DNA of 64,000 bases from positions 25,610-89,609 of the forward strand of contig CAOJUE010000003.1 of assembly GCA_948443845.1 (NCBI GenBank), read 5' to 3'. The position numbers and the translations under genes are program-made. Below, one piece after another: positions 50,179 through 52,123 of the stretch (the first letter of the stretch is position 1; every line of letters starts with the position of its first letter). This DNA comes from an uncultured Eubacteriales bacterium. GTDB taxonomy: Bacteria; Bacillota; Clostridia; TANB77; CAG-508. The notes under the pieces are model-generated. The model was not told where the DNA came from, ran no database searches, and saw only the letters and a list, made by a program, of their open reading frames with translations.

Positions 50179-51003
50179 ATGGCAAATAAAAAGAAAGAAA
50201 ATAAAATATCTATACAAAAAATAATTTATTTTGATGAGGAATCAATAACAGATTATGTACAAATAGTTGAAGGTGGAAAAATGGAAAAGACTACAGAATT
50301 ACTTAATGAAACTGAAGAAAGTCTAGAGTCCAACACAAAAGCTTCTGCATCTGCAGGAATTTCTGGTGTATTTAAAGCAATATTAGGTCTTGAAAGTAAA
50401 ATAGAAGCTAATCTAGAACTAGGCACATCATTAAATGCAAATAAAATGGCAAAGAACATATTAAAAAACACAATATTAACAGATTTTATTAACATATTAG
50501 AAAAAGGTAATTCTAGTATTGAGAACTTCAAGGATTACAAAATATTTGTAGAAAAGGACTCATTATCATATATTGTTATGATATCTCCATATATGACAAT
50601 GCTTGGAAAAAGTAATGGTATTAAGGCTGGTGAGTTTGACCTTTTTATAGATAAAATTGATAATGCTGTTAAATCAGGGAAAGGATATTTTGAGTTTGTA
50701 GGTGAAAAGAATAACAGAAAGGTTGTACTAAGATTTAATATAAATGCTTTTAAGAATAACTATAAAATATCAGATCTATTAAAAATGAATTTAAGTATAT
50801 ATGCTATAAAAGTAGGAACAACAACTCTAGAAAAACTTAATATGAATAACGAACTGAATTTGGATGAAAAAATAACAATTGGTAAGGATAATCCATCTTA
50901 TTATGTTGAAGAAAATAATAATGATAATGAAAACGAAGACAAGAAAAAAGAACTTAATGTTTATGATGTTTTGTTAGCAGGAGTTGAAAAAGATGATAGA
51001 TAG
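50179..51003 (+). CDS. hypothetical protein, partner of the downstream AAA+ ATPase
   Basis: ATG at 50179 after RBS agggga; no recognisable domain; the 3' end overlaps the next gene. Confidence 0.5.
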   Translation: MANKKKENKISIQKIIYFDEESITDYVQIVEGGKMEKTTELLNETEESLESNTKASASAGISGVFKAILGLESKIEANLELGTSLNANKMAKNILKNTILTDFINILEKGNSSIENFKDYKIFVEKDSLSYIVMISPYMTMLGKSNGIKAGEFDLFIDKIDNAVKSGKGYFEFVGEKNNRKVVLRFNINAFKNNYKISDLLKMNLSIYAIKVGTTTLEKLNMNNELNLDEKITIGKDNPSYYVEENNNDNENEDKKKELNVYDVLLAGVEKDDR

Positions 51004-52123
51004 AATTGTAATATTTAAAGGATCAAAAAGAGATTTTGAAAAATTATTAAATGATGAAATAAGTTCAAGTTCAGAAACGGTTTCATTTATGGAATTAATT
51101 CAATATTATAATAAACAAATAAGACAAAATGATTCTGCAAGTGAAGATGATTGGATTGCAAGAAAAAGAAATATAAAAAATTGTATAGTTAGAGCAGATG
51201 ATTATGCTAGTGTATTAGAACATGCTATTAGTAACTTTGTCAATATAATAACATTGAATAGTAAAGTTGAAAATTTATTTGTACATAATCCACCTAAAAG
51301 GGTTATAGAATCATTAAAAGCAGAGTATGCAGATATTATAGAATATAAATATTCAAAATATCAAAAAATAAATAGAGAAAAACTGAAAAAAATATATAAT
51401 AATATGGATAATTATATTATAGGTCAAAAACATTGCAAAAAAGAAATCACATCATCACTATACAAATTACTTACTAAAGAAAAAGATAAACCTATTGTAT
51501 TATTGCTGTATGGACCATCAGGAGTTGGAAAAACAGAAACAGCGAAAAATATTAGTGAAACATTGGGAGGAGAATTATTAAGAATCCAATTTTCGATGAT
51601 GCAAAGCCAAGAAGCATATAATTATGTGTTTGGAGGTGAACATTCTAGAAGTAGTTTTGCAAAAGATTTACAAAATAGAGAAACAAATATAGTACTTATA
51701 GATGAGTTTGATAAAGTTAATCCTATTTTTTATAATGCATTTTATGAAATGTTTGATGAAGGAAGATTTGTTGATACTAATTATGAAATTAATGTAAAAA
51801 ATTGTATCTTCATTTGTACAAGTAATTTTAATAACAAAAATGAAATTAAAGAAAATTTAGGCTCAGCTATGTTTTCTAGAATTGGCGATTGCATTGAATA
51901 TCAAGAATTAAACAAAGATGAAAAAGAAATAATAATTGATAAATATTATTCTGAAATTATAAAAAAATTAAAAGACGATGAAATAGATATAATTGAAAAA
52001 ACAGATATAAAAAGTTGGTTTATAAACAATGTTGATAGATATGATAACATTCGTATTTTAAAGAATAAGATAGAAAATGCTATTTTTGGTAAATTAACAG
52101 AAGTGTTCATTTTAAAAAATTAA
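50993..52123 (+). CDS. stand-alone Clp-D2-like (AAA_2 family) AAA+ ATPase with an N-terminal extension
   Basis: IIGQKHCKKEI (ClpX/ClpB-like), Walker A LLLYGPSGVGKTETAK, Walker B VLIDEFDKVNPIFYNAFYEMFDEGRFVD, sensor-1 ICTSN. Confidence 0.7.
   Translation: MIDRIVIFKGSKRDFEKLLNDEISSSSETVSFMELIQYYNKQIRQNDSASEDDWIARKRNIKNCIVRADDYASVLEHAISNFVNIITLNSKVENLFVHNPPKRVIESLKAEYADIIEYKYSKYQKINREKLKKIYNNMDNYIIGQKHCKKEITSSLYKLLTKEKDKPIVLLLYGPSGVGKTETAKNISETLGGELLRIQFSMMQSQEAYNYVFGGEHSRSSFAKDLQNRETNIVLIDEFDKVNPIFYNAFYEMFDEGRFVDTNYEINVKNCIFICTSNFNNKNEIKENLGSAMFSRIGDCIEYQELNKDEKEIIIDKYYSEIIKKLKDDEIDIIEKTDIKSWFINNVDRYDNIRILKNKIENAIFGKLTEVFILKN

Follow-up and report, generated by a model that had tools for sequence, protein, structure and literature searches.

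The gene pair at positions 50179–52123 of the window (the whole 64,000-nucleotide stretch of DNA analyzed here) is almost certainly a copy of the anti-phage system Dodola (DolA/DolB), as judged from homology and conserved gene order. The copy is genuine, intact, and typical, and its kind is already known: standard defense-finder models detect the pair. DolA matched the Pfam family DUF6414 (PF19952; E 9.6e-43, 147.4 bits against a cut-off of 25) over residues 14–269 of 274, and it matched the PADLOC DolA model (E 3.5e-79) over model positions 4–258 of 258. DolB matched the PADLOC DolB model with an E value of 9.6e-137 and 454 bits over model positions 3–372 of 375. With HMM E values from 1e-43 to 1e-137 and hundreds of homologues, chance ORFs are excluded for both genes. 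We compared the pair with validated Dodola indirectly, by means of the PADLOC models and of homologues from Bacillus cereus-group plasmids (30–43% identity). In validated copies, the gene for a DUF6414 protein precedes and overlaps that for a ClpB-like AAA+ ATPase on the same strand, and this is the arrangement found here; we observed no architectural difference, and the host in this case is an uncultured gut Clostridia lineage. The original prediction had described a two-gene module, and both ORFs are indeed present at the stated coordinates on the + strand, but its statement that the upstream gene has no recognizable domains was incorrect, given the full-length DUF6414 match. It had also proposed that the pair is an uncharacterized defense system. 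The assignment to defense stands, but the pair is not uncharacterized, as the PADLOC DolA and DolB models together identify it as Dodola.

The dolA gene (274 aa) runs from an ATG at 50179 to 51003 on the + strand and is preceded by a ribosome binding site and spacer at 50162–50178, in which AGGGGA lies about 10 nt 5′ of the ATG. The dolB gene (50993–52123, + strand) encodes a stand-alone AAA+ ATPase of the Clp/Hsp100 D2 type (376 aa). The ORF lister had placed the dolB start at a TTG at 50984 (giving 379 aa), but the ATG at 50993 is the better choice, because an AGGAG sequence (50979–50983) lies 9 nt upstream of it and because public gene calls contain an identical 376-aa product (P0121); a 274-aa protein identical to DolA is also present in public data (P0001). 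The two genes overlap by 11 nt (ATGATAGATAG, 50993–51003), and this overlap, together with the AGGAG sequence, suggests that dolA and dolB are translationally coupled. Upstream of dolA is an AT-rich intergenic region of 141 nt (50038–50178) containing promoter-like sites with 9/12 matches at 50061–50088 and 50130–50158; a promoter scan of this region found weak sites only, no better than the shuffle background. A perfect 19 bp inverted repeat with a 3-nt loop (52309–52349) begins 186 nt past the dolB stop codon and overlaps the −35 element of an 11/12 promoter-like site (52345–52373) that precedes the Fic-HTH gene. The repeat is possibly a terminator of the operon, an operator of the next gene, or both, and it is uncertain whether it is part of Dodola.

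We surveyed one genome per species for DolA-like matches and obtained 64 loci. Eight were set aside (three real dolA genes at contig ends, one degraded remnant, and four spurious short matches), which left 56 evaluable loci with a usable DolA match and downstream DNA. A homologue of DolB was encoded directly 3′ of dolA, on the same strand, in all 56; the genes overlapped briefly or were separated by less than 30 nt, and the usual spacing was an overlap of 4–11 nt or a gap of less than 10 nt. The two-gene module that had been proposed is thus kept as a unit, and the upstream protein matched no housekeeping family. The flanking genes were not conserved together with the pair: the KAP NTPase and the Fic-HTH gene were each found at 1 of 58 loci, and distant serine recombinases recurred at seven of the 58. 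We considered the KAP NTPase and the Fic-HTH protein as a third component of the system and rejected both, as their co-occurrence with the pair is limited to copies of the same element. Candidates for natural DolA–DolB fusions were likewise rejected; the longer DolA matches proved to be read-through or frameshift products and an internal-deletion chimera (P0258), with no true fusion among them.

The pair spans Clostridia, Erysipelotrichia, Bacilli, Actinobacteria, and one Saccharibacteria MAG. Its hosts are mainly gut Clostridia, Lachnospiraceae, and Erysipelotrichaceae, and they also include Eggerthellaceae, Olsenella, Varibaculum, and Cytobacillus. DUF6414 genes also occur on plasmids of the Bacillus cereus group, Enterococcus, and Lactobacillaceae, and on a Levilactobacillus plasmid the gene that follows DUF6414 is annotated as “AAA family ATPase.” The copy in the window is 80–90% identical to those of related MAGs, and its DolA is 30–43% identical to the Bacillus plasmid copies. 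The DolA family is small, with 534 clusters (at 50% identity) among 1.84 billion representatives at E ≤0.001, and nearly all of these are stand-alone proteins of 235–295 aa that match from end to end. DolA was less conserved than DolB at 45 of the 56 loci.

The AlphaFold2 (AF2) model of DolB (mean pLDDT 86.6) divides the protein into an N-terminal α/β domain (residues 1–120; 50993–51352) and an AAA+ module (residues 121–376; 51353–52120). The original prediction had likened the ATPase to the D2 domains of ClpB and ClpA on the strength of four motifs (IIGQKHCKKEI, GPSGVGKTE, DEFDKVNPIFYNAFYEMFDEGRFVD, and ICTSN), had credited it with an N-terminal extension of about 130 aa, and had stated that it lacks a D1 domain. 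All four motifs are present in the translation, the extension corresponds to the modeled α/β domain, and there is no second P-loop. The likeness to D2 is borne out by matches to Pfam AAA_2 (E 2.6e-17) and to the D2 domains of ClpC, ClpA, ClpB, and Skd3 in the PDB (from E 1e-17), and by hhalign, which aligned DolB 121–371 with residues 549–832 of E. coli ClpB (NBD2 plus the small domain) at a probability of 98.3%. In this alignment K180, E238, N278, R296, and R354 of DolB correspond to K611, E678, N719, R756, and R815 of ClpB. The Walker A lysine K180 (within GPSGVGKT, 51512–51535), the Walker B residues D237 and E238 (within LIDEFD, 51695–51712), sensor-1 N278, the arginine finger R296, and sensor-2 R354 are invariant among 34 DolB homologues.

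Foldseek returned ClpC1, ClpA, ClpB, and the single-ring disaggregase Skd3 as the top PDB matches of DolB, with a TM-score of 0.66 (normalized to the target) and an rmsd of 4.2 Å for Skd3 (7ttr). DolB shares its AAA+ subtype and its Walker A and B, sensor-1, arginine finger, and sensor-2 residues with ClpB NBD2 and human Skd3 (CLPB). Like them, it has no ClpP-docking loop, and it resembles Skd3 in joining one ring of the D2 type to an N-terminal domain of unrelated origin; unlike both ClpB and Skd3, it has an obligate partner gene. DolB contains no D1 ring and no M-domain, and it is about 20 residues shorter than E. coli ClpB between sensor-1 and the arginine finger. The best sequence and fold matches of DolB are to the ClpP-protease unfoldases ClpC, ClpA, and ClpX, but DolB lacks their D1 ring, adaptor-binding N-domain, and ClpP loop of the IGF/FAGFG type; the region of ClpC between sensor-1 and the arginine finger that carries FAGFG (approximately residues 660–691) has no counterpart in DolB. 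Membership of the class I Hsp100/Clp proteins (ClpB, ClpA, ClpC, and ClpV) was rejected on the grounds that DolB has a single P-loop and no Clp_N match.

Two parts of DolB set it apart from these relatives. The N-terminal domain, in which Y39, N40, D70, S73, H77, F82, N99, and P101 are invariant, is an orphan α/β fold that corresponds neither to ankyrin repeats nor to Clp_N, and no significant relative was found in PDB sequences, in residues 1–548 of E. coli ClpB (by hhalign), or in Pfam. The Foldseek alignments of DolB with ClpC1 and ClpA span 514–545 columns and hint that this domain is a degenerate D1, but hhalign against full-length ClpB found no such relationship and a PDB profile search returned nothing credible. 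The second part is a shortened pore-loop region (residues 207–220; 51611–51652), in which HMMER and hhalign both place a deletion of six residues that spans the tyrosine of the GYVG pore loop, so that, in contrast to ClpB and Skd3, DolB has no alignable pore-loop tyrosine. Because of this deletion, processive threading by DolB is not assured. Beside the deletion lies the invariant sequence EAYNYxFGxEHS, which contains Y211, F213, and H217 (34 homologues), and a gap-free register counted from Walker B would place F213 onto the pore-loop tyrosine. These three residues may or may not substitute for that tyrosine, and any model that involves threading is made uncertain chiefly by this atypical pore loop.

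DolA is modeled as a soluble α/β protein. Its AF2 model reaches only moderate confidence (pLDDT 63, pTM 0.60), and the α/β core is broken by two segments of low confidence. We computed variability on 50 relatives (27–49% identity) and found that these two segments, both disordered, are the most variable parts of the protein in sequence and in length. The first (residues 33–90; 50275–50448) is hypervariable, rich in Gly, Ser, and Ala, and predicted to be disordered; residues 33–87 have a pLDDT below 50 and high column entropy, and the distance between the conserved anchors G33 and N97 ranges from 57 to 77 aa in the 50 distant homologues. The second (residues 228–257; 50860–50949) is a variable acidic and polar linker with an entropy of 3.0–3.3 and a pLDDT below 50 at residues 228–250, and 21 to 46 aa lie between residues 225 and 259 in the same set.

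The linker leads into a C-terminal β-strand (VYDVLLAGVE, residues 258–270; 50950–50988) that sits in the sheet with a pLDDT of 76–90. Within this strand, YDVLLAGV (262–269) is more conserved than any other block in the family and has the lowest block entropy (1.07), and D263 and G268 are invariant in the 50 sequences. Further conserved blocks are YFDE (17–20), KGY.E (168–172), and RFN....N.Y..DL (185–200), and the invariant polar residues are D19, E20, D25, N97, D102, Y170, E172, R185, N187, Y195, D199, and D263. Searches with DolA (Foldseek against the PDB and BFVD, a PDB-sequence profile search, and PHROGs) found no relatives beyond DUF6414/DolA, and Pfam and PADLOC scans of all 50 members found no catalytic or toxin domain beyond DUF6414/DolA. 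We also rejected two specific proposals for DolA. A gasdermin-like or pore-forming protein is not indicated by its hydropathy (the maximum 19-residue Kyte-Doolittle value is 1.0), and DolA has neither a transmembrane segment nor a fold match. For a DolA that mimics or derives from a phage protein, there was no BFVD match at E <0.2 and no PHROG match; in a phage collection, the only DolA match was in one unannotated 5-kb contig labeled “Bacteriophage sp.”

According to later papers that cite it, Millman et al. (2022) gave the Dodola system its name. The name is not present in the main text of the Millman et al. preprint, and primary-source details are therefore taken here from the later citing papers. 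Dodola is cited as active against phage SPP1 in B. subtilis (PMC11514479), and a Streptococcus thermophilus Dodola (TK-P3A) has broad anti-phage activity (PMC12322248). In S. thermophilus, chromosomal Dodola delayed growth and abolished milk acidification, Dodola on a high-copy vector conferred no resistance, and ectopic copies slowed growth (PMC12322248). In the same 2025 paper, the entry for Dodola reads “Unknown” for its mechanism as well as for its Abi phenotype, and our literature search found no paper from 2025–2026 on the mechanism.

We tentatively propose that ATP-driven protein remodeling by DolB is the effector activity of Dodola and that DolA is its specificity or regulatory partner. 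DolB probably forms a ring like those of ClpB NBD2 and Skd3 that remodels or unfolds proteins at the expense of ATP. As the ClpP-docking loop is missing, DolB cannot pass substrates to ClpP and should remodel them rather than degrade them, and because protein remodeling is the sole enzymatic activity visible in Dodola, it is probably the effector step. DolA, which would be produced in a fixed proportion to DolB by translational coupling, is a putative partner that confers specificity or regulation. The disordered loops of DolA, which evolve fast, would be turned toward the phage, and its strongly conserved core and C-terminal strand would be the parts that dock onto DolB or that DolB handles. 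In an infected cell, the target that the complex unfolds or dismantles would be a phage protein or assembly, or else a host protein on which the phage depends. The invariance of the ATPase motifs, the fact that the closest structures are substrate-threading Hsp100 rings, the lack in DolA of a catalytic or toxin domain and of a transmembrane segment, its lower conservation relative to DolB, and the concentration of its variation in two disordered segments are all consistent with this proposal. On the other side, the invariant polar residues of DolA could be an undiscovered active site, in which case DolA would be the effector, and the AF2 confidence for DolA is only moderate.

The main rival to the remodeling proposal is that DolA is itself a latent toxic effector. 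The N-terminal domain of DolB would sense infection, DolB would activate DolA by unfolding it or extracting its C-terminal strand, and the infected cell would then die or arrest (abortive infection); this was also the idea behind the original prediction. We consider this account possible, if somewhat unlikely. A highly conserved strand on a flexible, variable linker is a plausible handle for an unfoldase, and DolA has many invariant polar residues. The growth delay, lost milk acidification, and copy-number sensitivity in S. thermophilus (PMC12322248) also count in its favor, and the slow growth and the failure of the high-copy vector fit a toxic effector just as well as they fit remodeling by DolB. 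Against it, scans of 50 diverse DolA proteins revealed neither a toxin, nuclease, or pore-forming domain nor a transmembrane segment, and DolA has no fold match in the PDB or BFVD (Foldseek). The description in PMC12322248 is also unlike a classic Abi collapse, but this is not decisive, because the same paper says the same of Gabija, to which it gives an Abi phenotype. A more specific version of the toxin idea, a toxin-antitoxin-chaperone (TAC) system or classical TA pair, was rejected, as neither protein has a toxin, antitoxin, or SecB-like match in Pfam, NCBIfam, or PADLOC; across these databases and the 50 DolA relatives, we found no toxin domain, transmembrane segment, or SecB-type chaperone.

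Two further accounts make DolA a protein that changes conformation, and we regard both as improbable. In the first, which we think unlikely as a whole, DolA is a conformational switch with a new fold, and DolB, a ring of the Hsp100 type with an atypical pore loop that lacks the tyrosine and contains a histidine, extracts or re-inserts the strand YDVLLAGV on its hypervariable acidic tether. In the second, for which the odds are quite low, Dodola follows a guard logic like that of TRIP13 and HORMA proteins in CBASS: DolB would keep resetting DolA to an inactive conformation, and DolA would switch on once a phage inhibited DolB or swamped it with substrate. The tight coupling of dolA and dolB would suit such a guard, as would the pairing of an AAA+ remodeler with a small α/β protein that has a mobile C-terminal strand. 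The CBASS proteins Cap6 (TRIP13) and Cap7/8 (HORMA) form a regulatory module that likewise pairs an AAA+ remodeler with a small α/β protein bearing a mobile terminal strand. The likeness is one of logic only, as there is no homology on either side and the conserved Dodola module includes no signaling enzyme or effector and nothing like a CD-NTase further downstream. By sequence, DolB is a member of the Hsp100 D2 group and not of the TRIP13 group (its TRIP13 match, E 0.002, covers the P-loop only). A HORMA-like DolA was rejected: Foldseek against the PDB gave nothing at E <1, with no HORMA protein among the 50 matches listed, and none of the PADLOC HORMA models matched DolA.

The identity of the pair as Dodola leaves little room for other assignments. 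PDC-M37, a PADLOC candidate system, has as its B component a DolB-like ATPase that aligns nearly end to end with DolB, including the N-terminal region; DolB matched two PDC-M37B models in this way (E 7.8e-34 and 3.2e-29), and one of the 50 DolA relatives weakly matched PDC-M37A (E 0.021). It is nonetheless very improbable that the pair is PDC-M37 instead of Dodola, given that DolB scored 454 bits against the DolB model and 115 bits against M37B, and that the partner protein M37A has no detectable kinship with the DolA of the window, which gave no M37A match. That the genes are housekeeping ones, encoding a chaperone or protease subunit of the Clp/Hsp100 type and an accessory protein, is a proposal of negligible probability: DolB has partial NCBIfam matches to ClpA, ClpV, and ClpB, but these score far below the equivalog cut-offs (72.3 versus 993, 66.5 versus 885, and 54.4 versus 1232, respectively), the protein has a single AAA+ module with neither the ClpP loop nor the M-domain, the distribution of the pair is patchy, on plasmids and islands, and the pair lies in a mobile island of 25% GC beside candidate defense genes and a serine recombinase.

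The left half of the window is ordinary chromosome, with genes for a PBP, MraY, FtsW, MurG, a Mur ligase, and hydrogenase. The mobile element extends from about 41.2 to 59.7 kb. An HTH gene, a ParB-like gene, and TnpV lie on its left side, and its right side has a large serine recombinase; the GC content drops to 23–29% between 43 and 58 kb. In addition to Dodola, its cargo includes genes that match known or candidate defense models, namely those for a DUF3427/NOV_C protein, a MazG-like protein, a DUF2075/Schlafen-type helicase (Nhi/AbiO-like), a KAP NTPase (PDC-S20), a Fic-wHTH protein (PDC-S72, SoFic-like), a metallophosphoesterase, and a Panacea-domain antitoxin pair. With several neighbors of this kind in the element, the earlier reasoning that the pair lies in a defense island holds.

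The discovery value of this copy is low, as standard models call it Dodola and public databases already contain identical proteins. Dodola is validated and broadly protective in dairy streptococci, and the residual interest lies in the mechanism of the family. The handles on that mechanism are the strict autonomy of the two genes, a DolB that has neither a ClpP loop nor a canonical pore-loop tyrosine, the orphan N-terminal domain of DolB, and the combination in DolA of two hypervariable disordered segments with an extremely conserved C-terminal strand. If DolA were the conformational switch outlined above, with DolB extracting or re-inserting its C-terminal strand, the variable loop rich in Gly, Ser, and Ala would be a bait for phages, and Dodola would represent a new class of AAA+-gated immune switch, similar in logic to TRIP13 and HORMA proteins and unrelated to them in ancestry.

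The Dodola pair is carried in a low-GC (23-29%) integrative element that extends from about position 41200 to about 59700 and is flanked on both sides by housekeeping genes, topA and dxr. Its left side carries an HTH_36 gene, a ParB-like gene, TnpV (43517-43906), and a DUF6664 gene, and its right side carries a large serine recombinase (57980-59683), a gene set that resembles that of Tn4451. Topoisomerase I is encoded in two overlapping pieces, ORFs 39057-40706 and 40624-41190, of which the second carries the Zn-ribbon. A frameshift near 40690-40706 appears to have split the gene, which is either a pseudogene or the product of an assembly error. 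Elsewhere in the window, two very large ORFs that lie side by side (5543-17036) probably encode cell-surface proteins: one of 1702 aa that contains DUF11 and SdrD_B repeats, and one of 2130 aa that has no Pfam match at all.

Several other groups of cargo genes accompany Dodola. Four tightly packed genes (44784-48408) encode a DUF3427/NOV_C protein (PADLOC candidate system PDC-S36, PD-T4-1-like), a 102-aa protein of unknown function, a MazG-like pyrophosphatase, and a 657-aa DUF2075/Schlafen-group-3 helicase (Nhi/AbiO-like, E 2e-14); start and stop codons abut at 45797 and 46105, and the group may constitute a multi-gene defence module. The gene for a calcineurin-like metallophosphoesterase with a weak match to PDC-S10 lies 16 nt upstream of one for a 274-aa protein that has no match in Pfam or PADLOC (53822-55499), and the two possibly form a further two-gene cargo module. 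The gene for a 147-aa SocA/Panacea-domain antitoxin overlaps by 8 nt a 213-aa ORF without any family match (55576-56653); together they are a candidate toxin-antitoxin pair of the PanA type, in which the toxin would be unclassified.

In a Foldseek search of the PDB with the model of the 376-aa DolB (m1de7242234c1), the alignments to ClpC1 and ClpA covered 514-545 columns and extended into the D1 ring of these proteins. This span raised the idea that the orphan N-domain of DolB might be a decayed D1 core, but sequence profiles do not support such an origin.

Damaged copies of Dodola exist in other sequences. The metagenome protein P0258 is an in-frame deletion chimera, DolA(1-170)-DolB(211-end), with its junction at the similar peptides KGY/YVFG. 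On Bacillus thuringiensis plasmid pBMB26, two short ORFs of 57 and 303 aa, annotated as hypothetical, occupy the place expected for dolB (L071 4822-5972) and probably represent a split gene.

Directly upstream of dolA lies a gene for a KAP-family P-loop NTPase (48766-50037; PADLOC PDC-S20, E 1e-38). Because the two are not co-conserved in other genomes (a KAP NTPase accompanies Dodola in 1 of 58 loci), the NTPase probably represents a candidate defence of its own that consists of one gene. On the other side of the pair, a gene at 52394-53452 encodes a protein with a Fic domain and a C-terminal winged HTH. This protein has a very strong match to the PADLOC candidate PDC-S72 (E 2.7e-126) and a weak one to SoFic (E 9e-14); a VbhA-like stretch at its N-terminus hints at an intramolecular antitoxin. 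Between dolB and this gene is a perfect 19-bp inverted repeat with a 3-nt loop (52309-52349; arms ATCAATACTTAAAGTGCAA and TTGCACTTTAAGTATTGAT), which overlaps the -35 element of a sigma-70-like promoter (52345-52373; 11/12 match, with a TG extension). The repeat could be the terminator of Dodola, an operator for the winged-HTH-containing Fic protein, or both.
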